Of a DNA stretch of 64,000 nt, positions 19,216 through 64,000 are shown piece after piece. The position numbers and the translations under genes were made by a program. This DNA is from Bacilli bacterium. GTDB taxonomy: Bacteria; Bacillota_I; Bacilli_A; RF39; UBA660. Location of the stretch: the NCBI GenBank assembly GCA_028694645.1, contig JAQVKM010000004.1, positions 79,365-143,364 on the forward strand, in the 5' to 3' direction. The notes under the pieces are model-generated. The model was not told the origin of the DNA. It saw only the letters and a program-made list of their open reading frames with translations, and did not search any database. Positions within the stretch are counted from its first letter, which is position 1, and every line of letters begins with the position of its first letter.

Positions 19216-19292
19216 GGGCGATTAGCTCAGTTGGTTAGAGCACCTGCCTTACAAGCAGGGGGTCATAGGTTCGAGTCCTATATCGCCCACCA
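19216..19292 (+). tRNA. tRNA-Val(TAC)
   Basis: Cloverleaf with anticodon loop CTTACAA. CCA is encoded. Confidence 0.9.
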
Positions 19293-19296
19293 TTTT

Positions 19297-19372
<76 letters not shown>

Positions 19373-19379
19373 TTATTTT

Positions 19380-19463
19380 GGAAGGGTAGCGAAGAGGTTA
19401 AACGCGGCAGACTGTAAATCTGTTCCTTCGGGTTCGATGGTTCGAATCCATCTCCTTCCACCA
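19380..19463 (+). tRNA. tRNA-Tyr(GTA)
   Basis: Anticodon loop CTGTAAA. Long variable arm. CCA end. Confidence 0.9.
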
Positions 19464-19475
19464 TAATTTTTTTAT

Positions 19476-19551
19476 TGCCTCGTAGCCAAGTGGTAAGGCA
19501 CCACACTTTGACTGTGGCATTTCGCTAGTTCGAATCTAGCCGAGGCAGCCA
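19476..19551 (+). tRNA. tRNA-Gln(TTG)
   Basis: Anticodon loop CTTTGAC. CCA end. Confidence 0.85.
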
Positions 19552-19576
19552 TTTTGAAATATTTAAATAATAATAT

Positions 19577-19652
19577 GTCTCGTTAGCTCAGCCGGTAGAG
19601 CATCTGACTTTTAATCAGAGGGTCGTGAGTTCGAATCTCGCACGAGACACCA
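19577..19652 (+). tRNA. tRNA-Lys(TTT)
   Basis: Anticodon loop CTTTTAA. CCA end. Confidence 0.9.
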
Positions 19653-19655
19653 GAT

Positions 19656-19744
19656 GCCTGAGTGGCGAAATTGGTAGACGCACAGGACTTAAAATCCTGC
19701 GAGAGTCAAATCTCGTGCCGGTTCAAGTCCGGCCTTAGGCACCA
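19656..19744 (+). tRNA. tRNA-Leu(TAA)
   Basis: Anticodon loop CTTAAAA. Long variable arm. CCA end. Confidence 0.9.
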
Positions 19745-19756
19745 ATATGAATATAA

Positions 19757-19778
19757 TCGAACAAATATGTTCGGTTTT
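19757..19778 (+). terminator. terminator after first tRNA block
   Basis: CGAACAaatatgTTCG stem followed by GTTTT. Confidence 0.5.
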
Positions 19779-19832
19779 ATTTTGTTAATTTTAATAATGA
19801 ATAAAAAAAATATAAAAAATTAATAAAATCTA

Positions 19833-19861
19833 TTGAAAATATATAAAATAACTGATATAAT
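19833..19861 (+). promoter_or_regulatory. promoter TTGAAA-17-TATAAT (extended TGn) for second tRNA block
   Basis: Consensus hexamers ~45 nt upstream of tRNA-Ser. Confidence 0.55.
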
Positions 19862-19908
19862 CATATACGTACTCGTAAATCTTTATATTTTCGAGATTAC
19901 AATTATAT

Positions 19909-19997
19909 GGAGAAATACCCAAGTGGTTGAAGGGTCCGGTCTTGAAAACCGGTAGGTCGGAAACGGCGCTAGGGTTCGAATCCCTATTTCTCCGCCA
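19909..19997 (+). tRNA. tRNA-Ser(TGA)
   Basis: Anticodon loop CTTGAAA. Long variable arm. CCA end. Confidence 0.9.
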
Positions 19998-20005
19998 TCT
20001 AATAT

Positions 20006-20082
<77 letters not shown>

Positions 20083-20085
20083 AAT

Positions 20086-20161
20086 GGTCCCGTAGTGTAG
20101 CGGTTATCACGTCTGCCTGTCACGCAGAAGATCGCGAGTTCGATTCTCGTCGGGACCGCCA
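20086..20161 (+). tRNA. tRNA-Asp(GTC)
   Basis: Anticodon loop CTGTCAC. CCA end. Confidence 0.9.
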
Positions 20162-20170
20162 TTTATTTTT

Positions 20171-20246
20171 GGCTCTGTAGCTCAGTCGGTAGAGCAAGGG
20201 ACTGAAAATCCCTGTGTCGATGGTTCGATTCCATTCGGAGCCACCA
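20171..20246 (+). tRNA. tRNA-Phe(GAA)
   Basis: Anticodon loop CTGAAAA. CCA end. Confidence 0.9.
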
Positions 20247-20357
20247 TTTTATAAGAAAAGAACAATAAGTTCACTAAAAATATATTAAATAAGATTCCAA
20301 TAATGATTGTTGGTTTTTTTATTAAAAAAAATAAATTTAGAAAATTTTAAAAAAATA

Positions 20358-20386
20358 TTGCTAAAACAATAATATTGTGGTAATAT
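20358..20386 (+). promoter_or_regulatory. promoter TTGCTA-17-TAATAT with extended TG for tRNA-Arg/Pro
   Basis: Hexamers at the correct spacing ~40 nt upstream of tRNA-Arg. Confidence 0.5.
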
Positions 20387-20426
20387 TATACTTGTATTTG
20401 TTGAGTTTTCTCAACAATAAAGTATC

Positions 20427-20503
20427 GCGCTCGTAGCTCAGCTGGATAGAGTGTTTGGCTACGAACCAAAAGGTCAGGGGTTCGAATCCCTTCGAGCGCA
20501 CCA
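20427..20503 (+). tRNA. tRNA-Arg(ACG)
   Basis: Anticodon loop CTACGAA. CCA end. Confidence 0.9.
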
Positions 20504-20514
20504 TAATAATTTTT

Positions 20515-20591
20515 CGGGATGTGGCTCAACTTGGTAGAGCACTTGGTTTGGGACCAAGGGGTTGCAGGTTCAAATCCTGTCATCCCGACCA
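20515..20591 (+). tRNA. tRNA-Pro(TGG)
   Basis: Anticodon loop TTTGGGA. CCA end. Confidence 0.9.
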
Positions 20592-22413: not shown

Positions 22414-23328
22414 ATGGATTATCAAAAGATAGGAACATTAATTTCAAATTTACGAAAAGAAAAAGGATTCACCCAAAAAGAATTAGCAGATAAATTAGGA
22501 ATAACAGATCGTGCGGTTTCAAAGTGGGAAAGGGGACATGGATGTCCAGATGTCTCATTATTAGATGATTTATCAAGAATATTAGATATTTCTATAATTG
22601 AAATATTAAAAGGCAGAAAATTAGATACAGATGAATTAGTAAATAATAAAGATTTGATTGAATCAATGAATTATTCTAAAGAAAGTTTTAAAAACAGAAT
22701 AAGAAAATATGTTAATATAGCTGCAATATTTATAATAATATTTATAATATTGTCTCAAATATTTTATATGGCAAAAAGTTTTTATTATCTTAATATAAAA
22801 TATCCTAAAAGTTTTGATAGTGAGCAAATTCTAAATCAAGTAGAAGAATTTAATAAAAACATTAGTATAATTAAAGCAAATCAAGGTATTTTTAATGATG
22901 AAGAATATAATAAAATTTTAGATTATATATCAAAATTAGAAAAGAGAGAAAATCTTGAAAATAATGATTTTTATATTAATAAAACAAAATTTTCATATTT
23001 AGAAATAATTGAATTTTATCGTTTACATGATATAGGCATTAATTATACTTATTATTTTTATCAATCTGAATTTGATGATTCAATTTATGCCATTTTAAGT
23101 AAACATGATATTAGCAAAATACCAAATATAATTGATTATTATAATCGCTTCAATCAATTGCGCTCTGGTTATGAATTGCTTTTTGAACAAATAACAGTTC
23201 CATATTATAATAATAAAACTATACAATACTATTTTATGGATAGTATGTATATGTCAATTTTTTATGAATATTATAATGATAATATTTTGTTAAATGACAT
23301 AATAGAAGTTGGTGGTATAAGTGAATAA
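22414..23328 (+). CDS. XRE-family HTH transcriptional regulator with transmembrane segment and C-terminal domain
   Basis: N-term LISNLRKEKGFTQKELADKLGITDRAVSKWERG is a Cro/C1 HTH. A hydrophobic segment IAAIFIIIFIILSQIF follows. Confidence 0.75.
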   Translation: MDYQKIGTLISNLRKEKGFTQKELADKLGITDRAVSKWERGHGCPDVSLLDDLSRILDISIIEILKGRKLDTDELVNNKDLIESMNYSKESFKNRIRKYVNIAAIFIIIFIILSQIFYMAKSFYYLNIKYPKSFDSEQILNQVEEFNKNISIIKANQGIFNDEEYNKILDYISKLEKRENLENNDFYINKTKFSYLEIIEFYRLHDIGINYTYYFYQSEFDDSIYAILSKHDISKIPNIIDYYNRFNQLRSGYELLFEQITVPYYNNKTIQYYFMDSMYMSIFYEYYNDNILLNDIIEVGGISE

Positions 23329-23914
23329 ACGAGGAATATTAAAATTTGTCTTATTATTATTTTCCTCATTTGCAACTTTTAAATTTCTTATGAATGCAGA
23401 TGAAACAGGTTTTATAACTGTAAATGGGCACTTGTTATTTATTGGATTTGTTGTTGCTGGGACTATATTTATGTATTGTAAAAAGAATAAAATAAAGAAA
23501 TTTAAATTTGTATATGATGTTGTATTAATGTTAATGATGTTATTTGTTGGTTTATTCATTGCATACTTTATATATGCAAATATAGTTACCTTTTTTAATC
23601 CATCATATGAAATGGAATTTAATATATTTTTAATCGAAATATATCCAGTAATACTTTGGTTAATAATTTTATTTAGCATTGAAGATATTTTTAAAAAAAC
23701 CAATAAAACTAATGATTATTTAACAATTGCAATTTCAATTACAATAATAATATTAATTTTAAGATATTATATTGATCCAACAATGCCTCATAATGTTGAA
23801 AGTACAAGCTTATTTTCTAGTTGTGCTTACGAATATATGATACAAAATTTACCTTCCTTTATAATCATGTATATATTACTTTTAATTCACCATGCAATTA
23901 ACAAAGAAAAATAA
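23321..23914 (+). CDS. polytopic membrane protein, hypothetical
   Basis: Overlaps the previous gene by 8 nt. 5-6 hydrophobic helices. Confidence 0.5.
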   Translation: MNKRGILKFVLLLFSSFATFKFLMNADETGFITVNGHLLFIGFVVAGTIFMYCKKNKIKKFKFVYDVVLMLMMLFVGLFIAYFIYANIVTFFNPSYEMEFNIFLIEIYPVILWLIILFSIEDIFKKTNKTNDYLTIAISITIIILILRYYIDPTMPHNVESTSLFSSCAYEYMIQNLPSFIIMYILLLIHHAINKEK

Positions 23915-50504: not shown

Positions 50505-51711
50505 AAATTTTTTTTGGAATATGATAGGCTCAACATTTAATGCATTTAATTCACTGTTTTTTATGGTTGTTGTAATAAGAATCAATGGCAGTGCTGATGC
50601 TGGTGTTTTTACATATTCATATTCAGTAGCTTGCCTCTTATATTATATTGGTATATATTTTGGAAGAACCTATCAAGTTACAGATACAAAAAAAGATTTC
50701 AGTGATAAAGATTATATATTCAATAGGTATATATCCATTTTTATAATGGTTATAATTTCAATAATATTTGTTGTAATAATGAAATTTGATAATTATAAAT
50801 CTTTAATTTTAATTTTATTAACTATTTATAGGGCAGTTGATGCATTAGCTGAAGTTTATTATGGTATTCTTCATAAAAATGAAAAATTGTATCTAGTTGG
50901 AATTTCTATGACATTAAAATCTTTATGTGGTTTAATATTATTTATTTTGGGTGATATTATATTCAAAAATATAATTTTAGCGTGTATATTTACCATATTA
51001 TTTAATTTAATTATTACAATTTTGAATGACAAAAGAAGGAGCAAAAAATATTTAGAAGAAGGAAATTCAAATTTTAAAAGTATTACAAGCATATATTTAA
51101 AATCATTTTTTGTATTTGCCTTTTCATTCTTGTCAATGTATATAGTGTCTGTTCCAAAATATTCAATGGTTAATTTACCGAATGAAGAACAGGCAATATT
51201 TGGAATAATAATGATGCCGGCAACTTTTGTTAGTTTGTGTGGATATTATATTATTAATCCATATTTAAATAAATTAACAGAATTTTATAAGAATAAAGAT
51301 AAAATAAATTTTGAATTGATTGTAAAAAAAATTTTACTATTTGTATTAGGAATTGGGGTGTTTGCTGAATTATGTGTATTTTCAGTAGCTATACCAATAT
51401 TAAATTTTGTGTTTAAAATAAATTTAAATGACTTCAAATTACAATTAGGAATAATAATTTTAGGTGCTGTTTTCTACACGGCAGGATTGGTATATTCAAA
51501 TGTATTGACAATATTCAGAAAGACCTTTGTTCAATTTATTATTTATGGTATAACTGCACTTGTTGGACTAGCTGTTTCTGTTGTTCTAATTTCTAATTAT
51601 TATCTGTTTGGAGGGACAATGTCATATTTTATTATAATGTCATTGCAATTATTATTGTATACAATAGTAACTAAAAGTATTATGAAAGAGGTTTTTAAAA
51701 ATGATAGATAA
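50494..51711 (+). CDS. Wzx-like oligosaccharide flippase (MOP superfamily)
   Basis: 405 aa with ~12 TM helices. Confidence 0.55.
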
Positions 51712-52285
51712 GATTGACTTAGTATTAAATGAACAAATAAACAATTTGAATGAATTGAAAAATAATAACTATAAAAATAAAATTATGGAAATCAGCAATT
51801 TGATTATTAATGCCATGAAAAATGGTAATAAAATTTTGATAGCTGGTAATGGTGGTTCAGCTGCAGATGCACAACATTTCGCAGCGGAATTAGTTGGAAG
51901 ATTTTGTTTAGAAAGAAAGGGACTACCGGCTATTGCATTAACAACCGATTCTTCTATTCTAACTTGTATGGGTAATGATTATGGATATGATTTTGTCTTT
52001 TCAAGACAAATTGAGGCACTTGGTAAAGCTGGTGATATTTTTATAGGAATATCAACAAGTGGAAATTCTAAAAATATTATTAATGCAACTTTAGAAGCAA
52101 ATAAAAATGGCATTATTTCAATATCTATGACAGGAAAAGATGGTGGAATAATTAAAGAAATAAGTGACTTTAATTTAAATTTTAATTATAAAGAAACAGC
52201 TAGAGTTCAAGAACATCACATAATGTCTATTCATTTAATTTGTGAGGCTGTAGAAAAAAAAATGAAGATATTTCAGGAGGGATAA
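51701..52285 (+). CDS. gmhA: D-sedoheptulose-7-phosphate isomerase
   Basis: SIS domain [19 protein letters not shown]...GISTSGNS. Confidence 0.8.
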
Positions 52286-52286
52286 A

Positions 52287-53516
52287 ATGAAACAAGGAAA
52301 TTATTTATCCAATAATTTTAGAAAAATATATGGTGTATTTCAGAAAAATTTATTCCTAAGAGATTTTAAAAATATTCTTTATTATGTTGATTTAATAATT
52401 CTGTTATTTATTGTTAAACCCAAAAAAATAAAATCACAAAAAAAGAAAATATTGGTTATTTATAATATGGCTTTTGGTGATGGCGTTATTTGGAGATGCA
52501 CATCTGTCCATTTAAACAAATTATACCCAAAGGAAAATTATGAGATAACTTTACTTTGTCAAAAAGGAATAAATAAATTGTATGAGAATGATGATACTTA
52601 CGATCATATTATTCCACTTGATTTTACGAAGGGAACTATTAGTTTGCCAGAGCGAATTAAAAACTTTAAAAAAATAAGAGAAGTATACTATGATTTAGTA
52701 ATTGACCCAATAGGAATAGTTGAGTGTACTACAAATGTTCTAATGACTAGAGCAGCTGTTGGAACAGAAAAAATTGGTTTAATTGATAAAGATGTTATTA
52801 TTCACTGTCCAAGACACATGACAAAAAAAATATATAATAAAATTATTGAAGTCAACGGCAAAGGAGTTTCTTTAATTGATTATTATGCAATATTTTTAAA
52901 GAAATTATCAAATGATAAATTAGATTTAAATGTTGGATATGAAAAAATAAAAACATATCCAACTAAAATAAAATTGCCAGAAAAATATTTTGTTGTATTT
53001 CCAAGTGCAAGTATGAAATTAAAAAGATGGGATATCTCCAAATACGTTGAATTATCTGGAAAAATACACGATAAAACAAAAATGCCAATTGTTTTAGTTG
53101 GTACAGTAGCTGATAAAGAAGCGATAGATCAATTCAAAAAGAATTTAAAAGTTCCCTTTGTTGATTTAGTTCAAAAAACAAATTTAAATGATTATATAAA
53201 TATAATTAAAAAGGCAGAGCTTGTTATAACTAATGACACTAGTGCTTATCATATCGCAGTAATTGAAGAAACCCCGGTTGCTATAATAACTGGTGGCTAT
53301 ACATATGATAGATATGTTGAATACAAATTTGAAAGAATGAATGAATTTAAAAAACCATGTATCATTGTAAATGAAATGAGCTGCTTCAATTGTGGAAATA
53401 GATGTCCTAATTTAAAAAAAGAGAACAGGAATTGGCCATGTTTAGAAAATATAACAGTTGATTTTGCTTGGAAAAAAATAGAAAAAATGATAAACGATGG
53501 AAAAATAGGAGAGTAA
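52287..53516 (+). CDS. glycosyltransferase family 9 (heptosyltransferase-like)
   Basis: C-terminal ITNDTSAYHIAV...ITGG matches the GT9 donor-binding motif. Confidence 0.6.
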   Translation: MKQGNYLSNNFRKIYGVFQKNLFLRDFKNILYYVDLIILLFIVKPKKIKSQKKKILVIYNMAFGDGVIWRCTSVHLNKLYPKENYEITLLCQKGINKLYENDDTYDHIIPLDFTKGTISLPERIKNFKKIREVYYDLVIDPIGIVECTTNVLMTRAAVGTEKIGLIDKDVIIHCPRHMTKKIYNKIIEVNGKGVSLIDYYAIFLKKLSNDKLDLNVGYEKIKTYPTKIKLPEKYFVVFPSASMKLKRWDISKYVELSGKIHDKTKMPIVLVGTVADKEAIDQFKKNLKVPFVDLVQKTNLNDYINIIKKAELVITNDTSAYHIAVIEETPVAIITGGYTYDRYVEYKFERMNEFKKPCIIVNEMSCFNCGNRCPNLKKENRNWPCLENITVDFAWKKIEKMINDGKIGE

Positions 53517-53517
53517 T

Positions 53518-54966
53518 ATGAATGTTGAAAAACTACGCGCAATAAATGATAAAAATATATTAGTTTTCGGTGATTATATGGTAGATAAGTATATTCTTGG
53601 AGATGTTAGCAGAATATCACCAGAAGCACCAGTTCCTGTTATACAAATGAGAGAAGAACAATGTAAAATTGGTGGAGCTGGCAATGTGATAAATAATATT
53701 ATTTCATTAGGTGCAAACGTAAAAGCTCTTGGTTGTGTTGGGGAAGATGAAGCCGGAAACTTCATAATTGATAATTTCAATAAAAATGATATTGATATTT
53801 TGCATTTTCGAAAAATGTCAAATATCAAGACTATATGTAAAACAAGAATTGTATCAAAAAAACAACAATTTTTAAGAATAGATGAGGAAAACATAAAGGA
53901 ATTACCATATGAATACTATGATTATTTAAATCAAAATATAGAAGATATTTTTAGTGAAATAAATCTTTTAATAATATCAGATTATGCTAAAGGAGCAGTT
54001 GTTGAAAAAACATCACAATTATTAATAAGAAAAGCCAAAGAAAAAAATATTCCTATAATTGTGGATCCTAAAGGCAATGACTACAGTAAATATTTTGGAG
54101 CAACAATTGTAACTCCGAATGTTAAAGAATTAAGTGACGTAGTTAAAAAAGAACTTTCAACAGAAGAGTCAATTATTATTGAAAGTGGTAAGTTATGTGA
54201 AAATTTTGGTTTTGACTATGTTATGTTGACGCGATCAGAAAAAGGTATAAGTTCAATTAATAAGGATTACGAGAAAAAAGATTTTCCTGCTGTTGCAAAG
54301 GAAATTATTGATGTTTCTGGAGCTGGAGATACAGTTGTTGCCACCATGGCATTAACAATGACATTGGGATTTTCAATTGAAGAAATGTGTAGAATTGCAA
54401 ATATAGCTGCATCAATCGTTGTATCAAAATTTGGAACTAGCACAGTGAATCTAAATGAATTAGTAAGCAATATATCAATTACAAGAGAGTTTAAATTATT
54501 AACTTCTGAAACAGCTGATTATATAATTGAATACTTAAGAGAAAATGGAAAAAAAATAGTTTTTACAAATGGGTGTTTTGATTTATTACATGCAGGTCAT
54601 TTATCCTCATTTAAAAAAGCCAAAGAATTTGGCGATGTTTTGATTGTTGCAGTCAATAGCGATTTATCTATAAAGAGAATAAAAGGAGAATTACGACCAA
54701 TAATAAAGGAAAAAGATCGTATTGAAATGCTTTGTGCATTAGAATGTATCGATTATGTGATTTTAATGGAAGATGATAATCCAATTGAATTATTAAAAAA
54801 ATTAAAACCAGATGTATCCGTTAAAGGAAAAGATTGGGAGAATAAAAATGTAGTTGAAAAACCAGTAATAGAAGAATATGGTGGAAAAATAGAATTTATA
54901 GATTTAGAATCAGGAATATCTACAACTACAATTATTGAAAGAATATTAAGAGCATATAATGAATAA
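53518..54966 (+). CDS. hldE: bifunctional D-beta-D-heptose 7-phosphate kinase / heptose 1-phosphate adenylyltransferase
   Basis: N-terminal pfkB-like kinase domain. C-terminal cytidylyltransferase-like FTNGCFDLLHAGH. 482 aa. Confidence 0.85.
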   Translation: MNVEKLRAINDKNILVFGDYMVDKYILGDVSRISPEAPVPVIQMREEQCKIGGAGNVINNIISLGANVKALGCVGEDEAGNFIIDNFNKNDIDILHFRKMSNIKTICKTRIVSKKQQFLRIDEENIKELPYEYYDYLNQNIEDIFSEINLLIISDYAKGAVVEKTSQLLIRKAKEKNIPIIVDPKGNDYSKYFGATIVTPNVKELSDVVKKELSTEESIIIESGKLCENFGFDYVMLTRSEKGISSINKDYEKKDFPAVAKEIIDVSGAGDTVVATMALTMTLGFSIEEMCRIANIAASIVVSKFGTSTVNLNELVSNISITREFKLLTSETADYIIEYLRENGKKIVFTNGCFDLLHAGHLSSFKKAKEFGDVLIVAVNSDLSIKRIKGELRPIIKEKDRIEMLCALECIDYVILMEDDNPIELLKKLKPDVSVKGKDWENKNVVEKPVIEEYGGKIEFIDLESGISTTTIIERILRAYNE

Positions 54967-55486
54967 AGTTATATTTTTAGATAGAGATGGAACTATTAAT
55001 TTTGATTCTGGTTATTTACATGAAATAGAAAAATTTAAGTTTTTACCGGGGGTTATTGATGGATTAAAATCTCTTCAAAATATGGGATTTAAGCTTATTA
55101 TTGTTACAAACCAATCTGGAATTGAAAGAGGATTTTTTAATGAATTTGACTATAAAATCTTAACTGATTATATGCTAAATGAATTAGAAAAAGAAGGAAT
55201 TAAAATAGAAAAGGTATATTATTGTCCTCATTTTTTTAGTAATTGTAATTGTCGAAAACCAAAATTAGAACTTTTTTATAAGGCAAAGGATGAATATGAT
55301 ATAGATTTTTCAAAGTCATATGCCATAGGAGATAAGAAAAGGGACTTGTCGATTTGCGAAAAAGAAAAAACAAAAGGAATACTTATTTCCTCTGAATTTG
55401 AGTCAATACAACTACAAGGGAATATAGCATTAGTCAAAAATTTTAAAGAAGCTGTTTTGCTTATACAAAAAAATGAAACAAATTAA
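54959..55486 (+). CDS. gmhB: D-glycero-D-manno-heptose 1,7-bisphosphate phosphatase
   Basis: HAD motif FLDRDGTIN. 175 aa. Confidence 0.8.
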   Translation: MNKVIFLDRDGTINFDSGYLHEIEKFKFLPGVIDGLKSLQNMGFKLIIVTNQSGIERGFFNEFDYKILTDYMLNELEKEGIKIEKVYYCPHFFSNCNCRKPKLELFYKAKDEYDIDFSKSYAIGDKKRDLSICEKEKTKGILISSEFESIQLQGNIALVKNFKEAVLLIQKNETN

Positions 55487-55504
55487 ATAATAATAAAAGT
55501 TAAG

Positions 55505-59752: not shown

Positions 59753-59897
59753 TTATCGCTTGATAACTTTTTGTTTGATTAAAAATTATCATTAAAAGTG
59801 TAAAAAAAAGTAAACAAATACATTGTAATGTTTGATAATTAAAACAAAAAGTGTTATACTAAAAATGTATAAGTATTAATGTAAGGTGGTGAAGGTA

Positions 59898-60089
59898 ATG
59901 AAAGAAGCTGCTGGAGAAGCAAATATGACTGTAGTAACTATCATCTTAATAGGGATTATAGTTGCAGTTGTAACACCAATAATCAACAGTATGATGACAA
60001 GCACAGAAAAAAAAGCTTGTTGTATGAACAATGGTGGAACTTGGGAAAATGGTGGATGTGTTGGAGCAAGTTCTGAATGTGAAGAATAA
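59898..60089 (+). CDS. small membrane-anchored Cys-rich peptide (pilin-like?)
   Basis: AGGTGG RBS. 63 aa. Short charged N-term, one TM helix, then C-terminal KKACCMNNGGTWENGGCVGASSECEE. Confidence 0.45.
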   Translation: MKEAAGEANMTVVTIILIGIIVAVVTPIINSMMTSTEKKACCMNNGGTWENGGCVGASSECEE

Positions 60090-60106: not shown

Positions 60107-60559
60107 ATGAGACAAGCTATTGGAAGTGTACCAATGTACAATATAATAATGGTTTTTATAGTAATAACTTTCGGTTTCTTGTCTGCAACCTTAAGTTATA
60201 TGAAAGCTTTTAAAGTGAATGGTAGAATTGCAAAAGCATTAGAAAATTATGAAGGCTATAATATTCTTTCAAATAACGAAATAACTGAAACTTTATCTAA
60301 TATAGGATATAAAATAGGAGATGCAAGTAGTTATTCTTGTCCAACAAGAGATAACAAAGCAGCCGTTCAAGCTATAACAGGTAAAAATCATGTTTATTGT
60401 TTGTATGAATTAGATTATTATCAAAATGGAACAACAAAAACAAGATATTTTAATTATGGTATTGTAAGCTATATTTTTATAGATCTTCCTATAATTGGTG
60501 AAACAATAAAAGTTCCAGTTTATTCAGAAACAGAAAAAATATTTAGATTTTCTGCTTAA
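60107..60559 (+). CDS. N-terminally anchored secreted protein, TadE/pseudopilin-like (paralog 1)
   Basis: 150 aa with N-terminal TM helix. Conserved CP.R.N...YC.Y pair shared with the next ORF. Confidence 0.5.
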   Translation: MRQAIGSVPMYNIIMVFIVITFGFLSATLSYMKAFKVNGRIAKALENYEGYNILSNNEITETLSNIGYKIGDASSYSCPTRDNKAAVQAITGKNHVYCLYELDYYQNGTTKTRYFNYGIVSYIFIDLPIIGETIKVPVYSETEKIFRFSA

Positions 60560-60574
60560 TTAGGAGTTGATTAA

Positions 60575-61033
60575 ATGAAAGAATCTATAGGAAATGCCTT
60601 TATAATGGGAATAGTTATAACATTTATAATTATTTTCATGATTTTTTTTGCAAGTTCATTAGCATACACTAAGGCTTTTAAAGCAAAAAACAAAATAGTT
60701 GAAATAATCGAAAAATATGATGATATTTTAAGTCAAAGTGCATCAGAAAATTCTGTTTTAATTAATGCAGTTGAAGCAGAAATAAATGAGACTTTGTCTG
60801 GTATGGGATATCGTATTAGCCCTACTTCTAATAATTGTCCATCTAGAAATAATGTTTCAGCTGTTAGAAAACAAGAAACAGCAAATTATGAATATTGTGT
60901 ATACAAATATACAACAACTAAAGGAAATTATTATGGAGTAACAGCTTATATGTATTTTGAAATTCCTATAATAGGGGTTGGACTTAGATTTCCAGTTTAC
61001 GGAGAAACTAAGATAAGTGGAATTTTAGGTTAG
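60575..61033 (+). CDS. N-terminally anchored secreted protein, TadE/pseudopilin-like (paralog 2)
   Basis: 152 aa. Same architecture and Cys pair as the previous ORF. Confidence 0.5.
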   Translation: MKESIGNAFIMGIVITFIIIFMIFFASSLAYTKAFKAKNKIVEIIEKYDDILSQSASENSVLINAVEAEINETLSGMGYRISPTSNNCPSRNNVSAVRKQETANYEYCVYKYTTTKGNYYGVTAYMYFEIPIIGVGLRFPVYGETKISGILG

Positions 61034-61043
61034 GAGGAATTAG

Positions 61044-62048
61044 ATGAACGTAATTATTGCTAACAAATATCAATCGATGCTAGAAACATTAGAAATTGAT
61101 GTTATAAAAAAACTAGAAGGTGAATTTGAAGTTGAAGATATAATAAATCAATTTCAAAATTTTTTCTTTCAAAGAATGATTTTGGATATCACAGCTATTA
61201 AAGATTATCGTGATATTAAAACCTTACAAAAATTATCTATTTCATTAGATATGGATAAAGTTATATTATTATTAGACGATTCATCTGAGGGAACTTCTAA
61301 TGATTATTTATCAAAATTGATTTCAATGGGAATATATAATTTTACTAAGAACATAGAAGGAATAATGTATTTATATAATAATCCTAATTCATATCGTGAT
61401 GTTGCACATATACAACAATTAGATATGACATCAGGAGAAGAAGTTATTATAGAAAAATATGAACAAGCAGTAGTTGGAACTAGAATTATTGGTATTAAAA
61501 ATGTTACTAAACAGTCTGGTGCAACAACATTATCTTATATGATAAAAAATCAGTTAAAACAAAATTATTCAGTAGTGGCTATAGAAGTAAATAAAAGTGA
61601 CTTTAGATATTTTGGTGATAAATCACTTATATCTACAACTAATTTTGAAATAGGAAATCAAATTTCAAAATATAGTGATAATGATGTTATTATTGTAGAT
61701 ATAAATGATTCAAAACAAGCAGAAGATTTATGTCATGATGTTATTTATTTAGTAGAACCATCTATCATTAAATTAAATAAATTGATGCTAGTTAATAGTG
61801 GAGCATTTAAAGATTTAGCTAAAAGAGATGCAAAAGTAGTTTTAAATCAAAGCTTATTAAATTCAAAAGATGTTTTAGATTTTGAATATGAGTCTGGAGC
61901 TAAAGTATTTTATAATATGCCACCACTTGATGAAAGAGAAAAAAGTATATTCGCTTTAAATTCGTTTTTAGTTAGATTAGGATTTAATAAGCAAAAAGAA
62001 GAACAACAAGAAAAAAAGAAATCGCTTTTAAGCTTATTTAGCAAATAA
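61044..62048 (+). CDS. TadZ/CpaE-like protein: receiver-like N-domain plus degenerate ParA/MinD-like ATPase domain
   Basis: IGIKNVTKQSGATTLS is a degenerate deviant Walker A. The N-terminal ~120 aa have a REC-like pattern. Confidence 0.4.
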   Translation: MNVIIANKYQSMLETLEIDVIKKLEGEFEVEDIINQFQNFFFQRMILDITAIKDYRDIKTLQKLSISLDMDKVILLLDDSSEGTSNDYLSKLISMGIYNFTKNIEGIMYLYNNPNSYRDVAHIQQLDMTSGEEVIIEKYEQAVVGTRIIGIKNVTKQSGATTLSYMIKNQLKQNYSVVAIEVNKSDFRYFGDKSLISTTNFEIGNQISKYSDNDVIIVDINDSKQAEDLCHDVIYLVEPSIIKLNKLMLVNSGAFKDLAKRDAKVVLNQSLLNSKDVLDFEYESGAKVFYNMPPLDEREKSIFALNSFLVRLGFNKQKEEQQEKKKSLLSLFSK

Positions 62049-62124: not shown

Positions 62125-62487
62125 ATGTTAGATATTTTAACTTGTACAGTTGGTGGAGTAGGAATGAGCAATGAAGCTTATGTAATAATTCCAAAAATTA
62201 CTGTTATGGTAGTTAATGTTATTAAAATCGTTATACCAATAATGTTAATAATATTTGGTATGCTTGATTTAGCTAAAGCTGTAATGACTAACGATGAAAA
62301 AGAAATGAAGGGTGCTCAAACAAAATTAATGAAAAGAGCAATCTATGCCGTTTTAGTATTCTTAGTTATCGCAATTGTACAATTATTGTTTGGCGCATTA
62401 GCTGGTTCTGCAGATAGTGATAGTGTTGATGGAAGTACTATTCAAGGATGTATCAGTTGTTTTGTTTCACAAACAAAAGATTGCTAA
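62125..62487 (+). CDS. membrane protein with TM-(D.K..K.A...LMKR)-TM module and Cys-rich tail
   Basis: AGGAGG RBS. The module is shared with the next two ORFs. Confidence 0.45.
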   Translation: MLDILTCTVGGVGMSNEAYVIIPKITVMVVNVIKIVIPIMLIIFGMLDLAKAVMTNDEKEMKGAQTKLMKRAIYAVLVFLVIAIVQLLFGALAGSADSDSVDGSTIQGCISCFVSQTKDC

Positions 62488-62584
62488 TATTAATATAGAA
62501 ATTATATGGAATTTATTCCATATTTTTTTTTATTATGATATAATGTATTTGTAAAAAAATATTTTTTAGCGTGGAGTGATATTT

Positions 62585-63637
62585 ATGAAAAAAATTATGT
62601 ATACATTTATATTAGTACTATTAGGATTTACATCTTTTAGTCATGTGAAAGCAGCGGCAATGTGTTCAACAAGGAATATAGATAGTTCAAAATGGTCTTA
62701 TGTTGAGACGATAACAAATAACAATCAACAATATTCAACAGTTGAAACATCAACTGAAAAAAGGGTTTGTTGTACAACAGGTTCTGGACAGACTTTACAA
62801 TATTATTGTGACAAATATTCTATTGTAGAAAATTATACTGCTCCTGAAGTTGAGGAAGAAATTACTTCCAATGATTTAGGAACATATGATATGCAATGTA
62901 ATACTATTAAGGGATTAGATTCAGAATGGAAATTTGATAAATGTGTTTGGTATTATCCTGCTTCTGCACCTTCTAATAAAGAAGTAATGGGTGTAGAAAA
63001 AGTATACTGTACAGTAGTTGGCTCAGGAGCAACTCAAAGAAGTCAATGTGATTATTTTACTTGGGAAGGGGATTTTGATTTTACTCAAAAACCAAGTAAT
63101 GCTATAGATACACCATTTGGAGCATGTGGAAATGTTGGTAATGATTGGACTTTTAATTATGCTATAACAAGTTCAACAAACATAACAACACAAACAGATA
63201 ATAGTAAAGTATGTTGTAATCAAACAGGAACTGGTGCAGGGACAACATACTTGTGTGATGTTTATGTAGATACTGAATATTATAATGATAAAAATGGTGA
63301 TGAAGATGAAGATATAGATACTTCTGTATGTTCAATTTTAGGTGGAGAAAACAGTGATACAATATTAATTATTAGAGAAATATATAATTATTTTACATGG
63401 ATCATCCCAGTATTAATAGTTGTTTTAAGTATTTTAGATTTTGTTAAAGTAATAGGCTCTGGGGATGACAAAGACTTAAAAGCTGCTGGAAACAATTTAA
63501 TAAAAAGAATTATAGTTGGGGTTGCTTTTTTCCTTGTTCCTTTATTAGTTAAATTATTTATTAATATTAGTGGAATTACTGAAAATATTACTGATGGAGA
63601 TAGTATTGTTGCAATAATAAGTTGCGTTTTAAAATAG
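62585..63637 (+). CDS. secreted Cys-rich repeat protein with C-terminal TM-(DDKDLKAAGNNLIKR)-TM module
   Basis: Signal peptide. Two copies of a VCC..G.G...Y.CD.Y repeat. C-terminal module as in the flanking ORFs. Confidence 0.5.
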   Translation: MKKIMYTFILVLLGFTSFSHVKAAAMCSTRNIDSSKWSYVETITNNNQQYSTVETSTEKRVCCTTGSGQTLQYYCDKYSIVENYTAPEVEEEITSNDLGTYDMQCNTIKGLDSEWKFDKCVWYYPASAPSNKEVMGVEKVYCTVVGSGATQRSQCDYFTWEGDFDFTQKPSNAIDTPFGACGNVGNDWTFNYAITSSTNITTQTDNSKVCCNQTGTGAGTTYLCDVYVDTEYYNDKNGDEDEDIDTSVCSILGGENSDTILIIREIYNYFTWIIPVLIVVLSILDFVKVIGSGDDKDLKAAGNNLIKRIIVGVAFFLVPLLVKLFINISGITENITDGDSIVAIISCVLK

Positions 63638-63648
63638 GAGATGATTAA

Positions 63649-64000
63649 ATGAACGATAAAGTAGGATTAGATATTATTAGATCAATATCTTCTGTTTTAG
63701 ATAAAGCAGTGTATTGGATAATAAGTATTGCATATGAAATAATAACTGAATTAGCACAAATAGATATATTTAAAGATACAACTGTTAGTGATTTTTCAAC
63801 AAGAATATATACTTTAATTGGTTTATTTATGATATTTAAAATATCGTTTGTATTAATCAATTATGTAATTAATCCGGGAAATATAACGGATAAAGAAAAA
63901 GGTGGAGCTAATTTAATCAAAAGAATTGTAATTACTTTTGTACTTATTATAATGGCCCCACAACTTTTTTCATTAATGACAAGAGCACAAAATGCTATAT
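63649..64000 (+). CDS. membrane protein carrying the same TM-(DKEKGGANLIKR)-TM module (3' end beyond window)
   Basis: ORF is open to the window end. GGAG RBS. Confidence 0.45.
   Translation, partial: MNDKVGLDIIRSISSVLDKAVYWIISIAYEIITELAQIDIFKDTTVSDFSTRIYTLIGLFMIFKISFVLINYVINPGNITDKEKGGANLIKRIVITFVLIIMAPQLFSLMTRAQNAI

Follow-up and report, generated by a model that had tools for sequence, protein, structure and literature searches.

We analysed a stretch of 64,000 nucleotides (hereafter the window) of contig JAQVKM010000004.1, part of a metagenome-assembled genome (MAG) labelled "Bacilli bacterium", which encodes two small, N-terminally anchored paralogous proteins in tandem; the upstream open reading frame (ORF) of the pair is called P1 and the downstream one P2 throughout. 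On balance, we favour the view that P1 and P2 are a minor-pilin-like pair that primes or caps an adhesive fibre made of the 63-residue protein encoded directly upstream (pil63), with a Tad-like motor, and that this fibre serves the type IV secretion system (T4SS) encoded in the same cluster. With similar, moderate confidence we regard them as a new family of minor-pilin-like proteins, carried by a Tad-like/T4SS hybrid cluster and unnamed in the libraries searched. We also lean towards the idea that they work like TadE and TadF, yet fail the sequence definition of that family.

Two anchored paralogues with an invariant cysteine pair

A preliminary description of this DNA had presented P1 and P2 as tandem paralogues that look like minor pilins or TadE/TadF pseudopilins. 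Pairwise alignment bears out the paralogy at the positions given there: the two proteins share 36% identity and 60% positives (BLASTP, E 1e-24), far beyond chance. Every motif listed in that description was found, i.e. M(R/K)..IG, a hydrophobic stretch, YxKAFK, ..TLS.(I/M)GY(K/R)I, CP(T/S)R(D/N)N, YC(L/V)Y and P.IG..PVY.ET, with the spacings slightly miscounted: the two Cys residues lie 20 positions apart in both P1 and P2 (C88 and C108 in P2), and the gap between IG and PVY is 5 residues instead of 4. The Cys pair is indeed conserved, being invariant in a 72-sequence alignment together with Y31, K33, A34, F35, P131 and P140, and both Cys columns exceed 90% conservation in each orthologous group (80 distinct P1 and 82 distinct P2 orthologues). 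The YxKAFK motif begins at residue 31 in 235 of the 238 database members that have it. An isolated, invariant Cys pair, with no other metal-ligand pattern around, suggests a disulfide.

P1 and P2 are two distinct orthologous groups. They co-occur in 88 of the 88 loci over which all synteny counts were made, and the nearest neighbour falls within the sequence's own paralogue group in 160 cases out of 162; the duplication is therefore older than the radiation of these species. The family is large: P2 (PHN42_03960, MDD3453404.1) has 182 relatives in a 90%-identity cluster database, none of which carries a Pfam domain or a name, and a 70-sequence profile retrieved 1456 representatives at 50% identity with E <= 1e-3 (968 of these with E <= 1e-10). 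A relative of P1/P2 is encoded in at least 192 species-level genomes of a species-representative genome collection. Of the 192 stretches found there, 80 loci were kept, nearly all of them from uncultured gut MAGs labelled Bacilli, Tenericutes, Mollicutes or Mycoplasmatota (a lineage that we take to be RF39-type in appearance) and two of them from closed chromosomes of 1.3-1.5 Mb.

AlphaFold2 modelled P2 with good confidence (70 sequences; pLDDT 85.9, pTM 0.77). The model consists of a single unbroken, high-confidence helix (residues 2-51), a second helix (64-77) and three strands (107-114, 117-129 and 136-144).

A shared N-terminal signature and a conserved gene string

P1 and P2 have their N-terminal layout in common with two other proteins of the cluster, pil63 and a DUF5411 protein. 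We scanned every ATG-started ORF of at least 45 codons, on both strands, in loci totalling ~1.5 Mb, and obtained 257 occurrences of the signature M[KR][EQ][AS] followed by an uncharged core, all of them within pil63, P1, P2 or DUF5411. Position 6 or 7 is occupied by a small residue, in most cases Gly, and the hydrophobic helix follows; after M-[KR]-[EQ]-[AS]-x-G, the uncharged stretch has a median length of 29 residues. Gly occupies position 6 in 94% of the pil63 sequences, in 75 of 82 P1 sequences (91%) and in 60% of the P2 sequences (a further 29% have Ala). Within the window, an M[KR][EQ][AS] start was found only in P1 and P2 among the 60 plus-strand ORFs of at least 100 aa. Residues 1-30 are conserved and of fixed length, with E3, F17 and F25 at 90% or more, and can be likened to the alpha1-N segment of pilins. 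Position +6 after Gly6 is Asn in both P1 and P2, this Asn12 being conserved. A short polar leader that ends in Gly and is followed by ~20 hydrophobic residues is the layout of type IV pilins, and the signature conforms to it; six residues ending in Gly is the leader length of type IVa prepilins. A signature carried by four families recalls the class III signal common to all prepilins of a given system; any cleavage would then take place after Gly6. Profile-profile comparison of P1/P2 with DUF5411 and with the 63-residue family gave alignments limited to the first 18-20 residues, with low probability.

The preliminary description had overlooked both the pilin-like 63-residue gene and the type IV secretion genes downstream. 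pil63 lies directly upstream of P1 in 84 of the 88 loci and its N-terminus is nearly invariant. We take its start to be ATG 59898, and not the listed GTG 59886 (67 aa), because the former is conserved in 84 loci and is preceded, 8 nt upstream, by the ribosome-binding site AAGGTGG. The protein reads MKEAAGEANMTVVTIILIG..., followed by the Cys-rich tail. Its matches are all sub-threshold: archaeal Pilin_N in 6 of 40 members (best E 0.007), the type IV pilin PilE1 from the PDB (E 0.02) and, in most members (25/40), PF12669, the FeoB-associated Cys-rich peptide (best E 1.4e-5).

The order pil63, P1, P2 and the gene of a 334-residue protein is retained in 84-88 of the 88 loci. In the window, strong Shine-Dalgarno sequences precede P1 and P2, and the gaps to the adjoining genes are merely 10-17 nt. 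The 334-residue protein has a TadZ-like two-domain layout with a degenerate Walker A motif (KQSGATT). In ~70 of the 88 loci, pil63 is immediately preceded by a second block, which encodes two secreted proteins, the DUF5411 protein (E 4e-48), a CpaB/RcpC-like protein (E 1e-5, below the family cut-off), a T2SSE ATPase, and two membrane proteins of 300 and 261 aa. The ATPase carries PF00437 and matches CpaF (8rkd, E 1.6e-18). By synteny over the 88 loci, a flp-sized gene, a TadA/CpaF-type ATPase gene and a TadZ-like gene, the combination that identifies a tad locus, thus stand in one locus. Note that a DUF5411 gene beside CpaF has been described before, in Clostridia (PMC9523054).

Downstream of the pilin-like genes there are always T4SS genes of the type found in mycoplasma integrative and conjugative elements (ICEs). 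A 120-residue VirB2-like gene follows the 334-residue gene in 79 loci, and related contigs continue with a PrgI/VirB3-like 107-residue protein, a split VirB4 and often a SpoIID/CHAP hydrolase. VirB4 belongs to the mycoplasma-ICE Mbov_0397 family (E 7e-108) and is encoded by two overlapping ORFs (in locus L002, 15919-16476 and 16466-18250), a layout found in 59 loci; the 185-residue product corresponds to residues 100-276 of the Mbov_0397 model and the 594-residue product to residues 294-891. In ~60 of the 88 loci, the pilin-like and T4SS genes are joined in a single conserved string on the chromosome.

In the genome of the window, the ATPase block is located elsewhere: the same MAG carries it on another contig, L088 (same SRA run; MDD3452949.1 versus MDD3453404.1, same series). 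The cluster is repeatedly broken, or has received insertions, between the 261-residue gene and pil63, as in the window and in L083, L085, L019, L020, L044 and L062, so that the pilin-like genes stay with the T4SS genes. Only the two halves combined supply every part expected of a Tad-like system.

The TadZ-like 334-residue protein (73-90% identity over its top 120 hits; 6207 hits at E <= 1e-3) is much better conserved than P1/P2 (45-66%), and the ATPase shows 84-96% identity to its own top 120 hits.

These data are consistent with the following scheme. P1 and P2 would each be inserted through the N-terminal hydrophobic helix with the N-terminus inside and the C-terminus outside, leaving a small helix-plus-sheet domain, braced by one disulfide, facing outwards. 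Together, and probably with the DUF5411 protein, they would seed or cap a fibre the bulk of which would be the 63-residue protein. The CpaF/VirB11-family ATPase, its CpaB-like partner and the two membrane proteins would extrude the fibre, and the TadZ-like ParA/MinD protein would position it. The pilin genes would be transcribed together with the mycoplasma-ICE-type T4SS, for which the filament would therefore supply the necessary cell contact or substrate capture.

Weighing a pilin-like role against other roles

Several observations weigh against a pilin-like role. To begin with, family searches did not recover pilins. Pfam gave no match at E <= 1 to TadE (PF07811) for either P1 or P2, none of the 70 family members scanned matched TadE, N_methyl or any other pilin hidden Markov model (HMM) (for TadE, none at E <= 10), and all that Pfam returned for P1, P2 and 70 relatives was noise from the hydrophobic helix. 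The two proteins therefore fall outside the TadE/TadF family as defined by sequence. NCBIfam had no match for P1 or P2, Foldseek found neither a significant match nor a pilin in the PDB, and profile searches of PDB sequences with the P1/P2, 334-residue, 300-residue, 261-residue and DUF5411 families yielded nothing. The resemblance to minor pilins and TadE/TadF that had been put forward is partly borne out, by the position in the locus, which is that of tadE/tadF, and by the CpaF/VirB11-family ATPase with its CpaB-like and DUF5411 neighbours. Second, the canonical prepilin motif is absent, as had been remarked: after the putative Gly6 site, position +5 is Tyr or Leu in P1 and Phe, Leu or Val in P2 instead of Glu, and neither the Glu5 of the mature protein nor the N-methylation motif (PF07963) was found. 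Third, no A24 prepilin peptidase was detected, either in the window or in the 10 kb around 87 related loci. A six-frame search of the window and these loci for GxGD-type motifs, in a strict and a relaxed form, gave one irrelevant match; Pfam assigned the polytopic ORFs of the window to BacA, ABC-2, DUF2304 and similar families, none of them A24; and a 197-residue ORF with five predicted hydrophobic segments (23321-23914) has neither a Pfam match nor a GxGD-type motif. Note that tadV can be encoded apart from the system that it serves (PMC6668835).

The machine itself is ambiguous too. The ATPase is as close to VirB11 as it is to CpaF and could therefore belong to the T4SS. The 300- and 261-residue proteins have no detectable homology to TadB/TadC and profile-profile comparison revealed no relation between their families; their TadB/TadC labels rest on position and size. 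"Tad-like" is for these reasons a well-motivated label, not a proven one. Finally, no filament has been observed, and two features of the N-terminal region fit badly: the 15 residues that follow the helix are basic (+2.2 to +2.7) while the N-terminal flank is about neutral, so that the positive-inside rule would put the C-terminal domain in the cytoplasm, and small residues upstream of Tyr31 (S, A or G at -1 in 77-89% of the sequences; S, T or A at -3 in most) permit Sec-type cleavage before this residue.

Among the alternatives, the one that survives best is a role outside any filament: P1 and P2 would be bitopic accessory proteins of the membrane, i.e. a heterodimeric stator, alignment or channel part of the Tad-like machine or of the T4SS, in a role like that of PilN/PilO, GspL/M or VirB8. 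Like PilN/PilO, the two are tandem paralogues that combine an N-terminal anchor with a long helix and a small alpha/beta domain, the failure of Foldseek to return a pilin fits this role, the cluster contains no recognised VirB8-like gene, and split clusters (the window, L083 and L085) leave P1/P2 with the T4SS genes and not with the ATPase module. By contrast, the N-terminal signature is common to the 63-residue protein, which is too small to be anything except a fibre subunit or a small membrane peptide, and the place of the pair directly after the 63-residue gene mirrors the order flp-tadE-tadF. Neither P1 nor P2 shows, after the anchor, the ferredoxin-like or NTF2-like extracytoplasmic domain by which PilN/PilO/GspM and VirB8 proteins are recognised. 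We regard this accessory role as rather unlikely.

A second alternative, which we consider improbable, would have residues 1-30 act as a long Gram-positive-type Sec signal peptide that signal peptidase I cuts before Tyr31, P1 and P2 becoming small, disulfide-bonded, secreted or wall-associated proteins that start with YxKAFKVKN. The composition at -1 and -3 and the near-constant location of the motif at position 31 fit such a cut, and the basic stretch after the hydrophobic segment would cease to conflict with the topology rules. However, ~20% of the members have N, T or V at -1, the n-region is nearly devoid of net positive charge, and the fixed length and conservation of residues 1-30 (E3, N12, F17, F25) are unlike those of disposable signal peptides. 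Moreover, the AlphaFold2 helix runs continuously and with high confidence across the putative site, and three other proteins of the cluster bear the same signature with no such site.

That the topology is inverted (N-terminus out, C-terminus in), with a cytoplasmic alpha/beta domain touching the ATPase or the ParA-like protein and Cys residues that are not disulfide-bonded, would suit the flanking charges and is very improbable: the isolated Cys pair points to a disulfide, the DUF5411 protein combines the same signature with a strongly acidic C-flank (-3), as expected for an N-in, C-out orientation, and the monoderm pilin ComGC has a neutral leader and a basic post-helix flank.

Genomic setting, related systems and significance

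The features of the window around the pair are listed in the table below. The promoter-like site agrees with the consensus at 10 of 12 positions in a pattern scan, and is a pattern match only; as read from the sequence, it comes after an AT-rich hairpin and T-run that follow the GtrA gene. The genes upstream of pil63 encode GtrA, a GT2 glycosyltransferase and a GH25 hydrolase. The 353-residue VirB2-like protein matches PF18895 with E 6.3e-7 (29.8 bits versus a cut-off of 26.6), and its Cys-rich repeats each finish with a motif of the type (V)CCxxGxG...(Y)xCD(x)Y; the CC..GG.W..G.C tail of pil63 resembles these repeats. The start of the VirB6/TrbL-like gene is 49% identical (tblastn) to a 900-residue protein of L002 that has weak matches to TrbL_4 and Mbov_0396.

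Table. Features of the window and N-termini of the four signature-bearing families (positions are those of the window)
Feature	Coordinates	Strand	N-terminus	Description
Promoter-like site	59832..59860	+		TTGATA-17 nt-TATACT with TG extension; ~38 nt upstream of pil63; candidate operon start
pil63	59898..60089	+	MKEAAG, then uncharged helix (here MKEAAG/EANMTVVTIILIG...)	63 aa, Flp-sized; Cys-rich C-terminal tail; candidate major pilin
P1	60107..60559	+	M[KR][EQ]xIG, then uncharged helix	150 aa; N-terminally anchored paralogue with conserved Cys pair; candidate minor pilin
P2	60575..61033	+	M[KR]E[AS]x[GAS], then uncharged helix	152 aa; paralogue of P1; candidate minor pilin
TadZ/CpaE-like protein	61044..62048	+		334 aa; C-terminal ParA/MinD fold; N-terminal domain (beta-alpha)5, poorly modelled
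VirB2-like T4SS pilin candidate	62125..62487	+		120 aa; PF18895 T4SS_pilin, weak (E 0.0095)
353-residue protein	62576..63637	+		353 aa; signal peptide, three Cys-rich repeats, C-terminal T4SS_pilin domain
VirB6/TrbL-like T4SS membrane protein (start only)	63649..64000	+		Cut by window end; ATG 63649 read from sequence
DUF5411 protein (related loci)			MKESFWG, then uncharged helix

The GC content of the window is ~25%. No relatives of P1/P2 were found in IMG/VR or PLSDB, which, together with the chromosomal context of the window, led us to reject an origin in a mobile element; the context is considered chromosomal because, among others, 12 tRNA genes are clustered on the plus strand at 19216-20591. 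Further on, at ~51700-55500, a set of ADP-heptose-type genes lies beside surface-glycan genes in an organism labelled Bacilli: it encodes SIS/GmhA-like, GT9 heptosyltransferase-like and HldE-like (PfkB plus cytidylyltransferase) proteins and an HAD phosphatase.

The closest comparison for P1 and P2 is with TadE/TadF of the Flp (Tad, type IVc) pili. Like these, they are ~150-residue proteins with a single N-terminal hydrophobic helix, encoded in tandem right after a small Flp-sized gene as in monoderm tad loci, in a cluster that also includes a CpaF-type ATPase, a CpaB/RcpC-like protein and a TadZ-like ParA/MinD protein. They differ by the lack of a PF07811 match (0/70) and of the G/xxxxE[FY] processing motif, by their invariant Cys pair and YxKAFKVKN motif, and by a cluster that contains no peptidase gene and is probably co-transcribed with T4SS genes. 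With GspI/EpsI/XcpV and the type IVa pilins and minor pilins (PilA4, PilE, PilV), P1 and P2 share the six-residue leader ending in Gly, whereas sequence similarity, Glu5, the N-methylation motif and a significant Foldseek match are all missing.

Literature searches found no paper that describes this cluster. Clusters resembling it by description occur in other monoderm gut lineages, namely the Tad-like cluster of TANB77, uncultured gut Clostridia, with its unannotated pilin-like single-transmembrane proteins (PMC11680825), and the DUF5411-CpaF clusters of Roseburia, Ruminococcus and Eubacterium (PMC9523054). Both are described as having a CpaB/TadZ-like/CpaF core and several single-transmembrane proteins of 140-240 aa that could not be named by sequence or fold search, and the latter have DUF5411 in common with the P1/P2 loci; no T4SS is reported in either (PMC11680825, PMC9523054).

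Type IV pili that serve conjugation-type machines include the R64 thin pilus and the Ups pili that operate with the Ced DNA importer. In Patescibacteria, type IV pili occur with a relaxase-less T4SS that has VirB2 arrays (PMC12102498). The likeness of our cluster to these systems lies in a proposed type IV filament paired with a VirB4-based machine and in tandem VirB2-like pilin genes. It differs from them in that pilin-like and T4SS genes form a single conserved chromosomal string in most loci, and in the mycoplasma-ICE Mbov_0397 type of its VirB4. The genes examined within 10 kb included no relaxase that we noticed, although no search was aimed at one. A bolder proposal, which we deem unlikely, is that pil63, P1, P2 and DUF5411 make up an undescribed branch of type IV filaments without Glu5, either unprocessed or cut by an enzyme other than A24. 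Such a filament would belong integrally to a co-transcribed, chromosomal and apparently relaxase-less T4SS, with which genome-reduced gut Bacilli would take up DNA or contact other cells, and the basic YxKAFKVKN stripe of P1/P2 would be a ligand- or DNA-binding surface.

P1 and P2 belong to a large family that none of the searched libraries names and that occurs almost only in uncultured gut Bacilli with small genomes. If they are the tip or priming subunits of a Tad-like fibre firmly coupled to a T4SS, they probably form the surface by which these organisms attach to partners or acquire DNA, in parallel with the pairing of type IV pili and T4SS in Patescibacteria. Moreover, pilin-type signals without Glu5 escape every current HMM, so that counts of type IV filaments in monoderm gut lineages may be too low.
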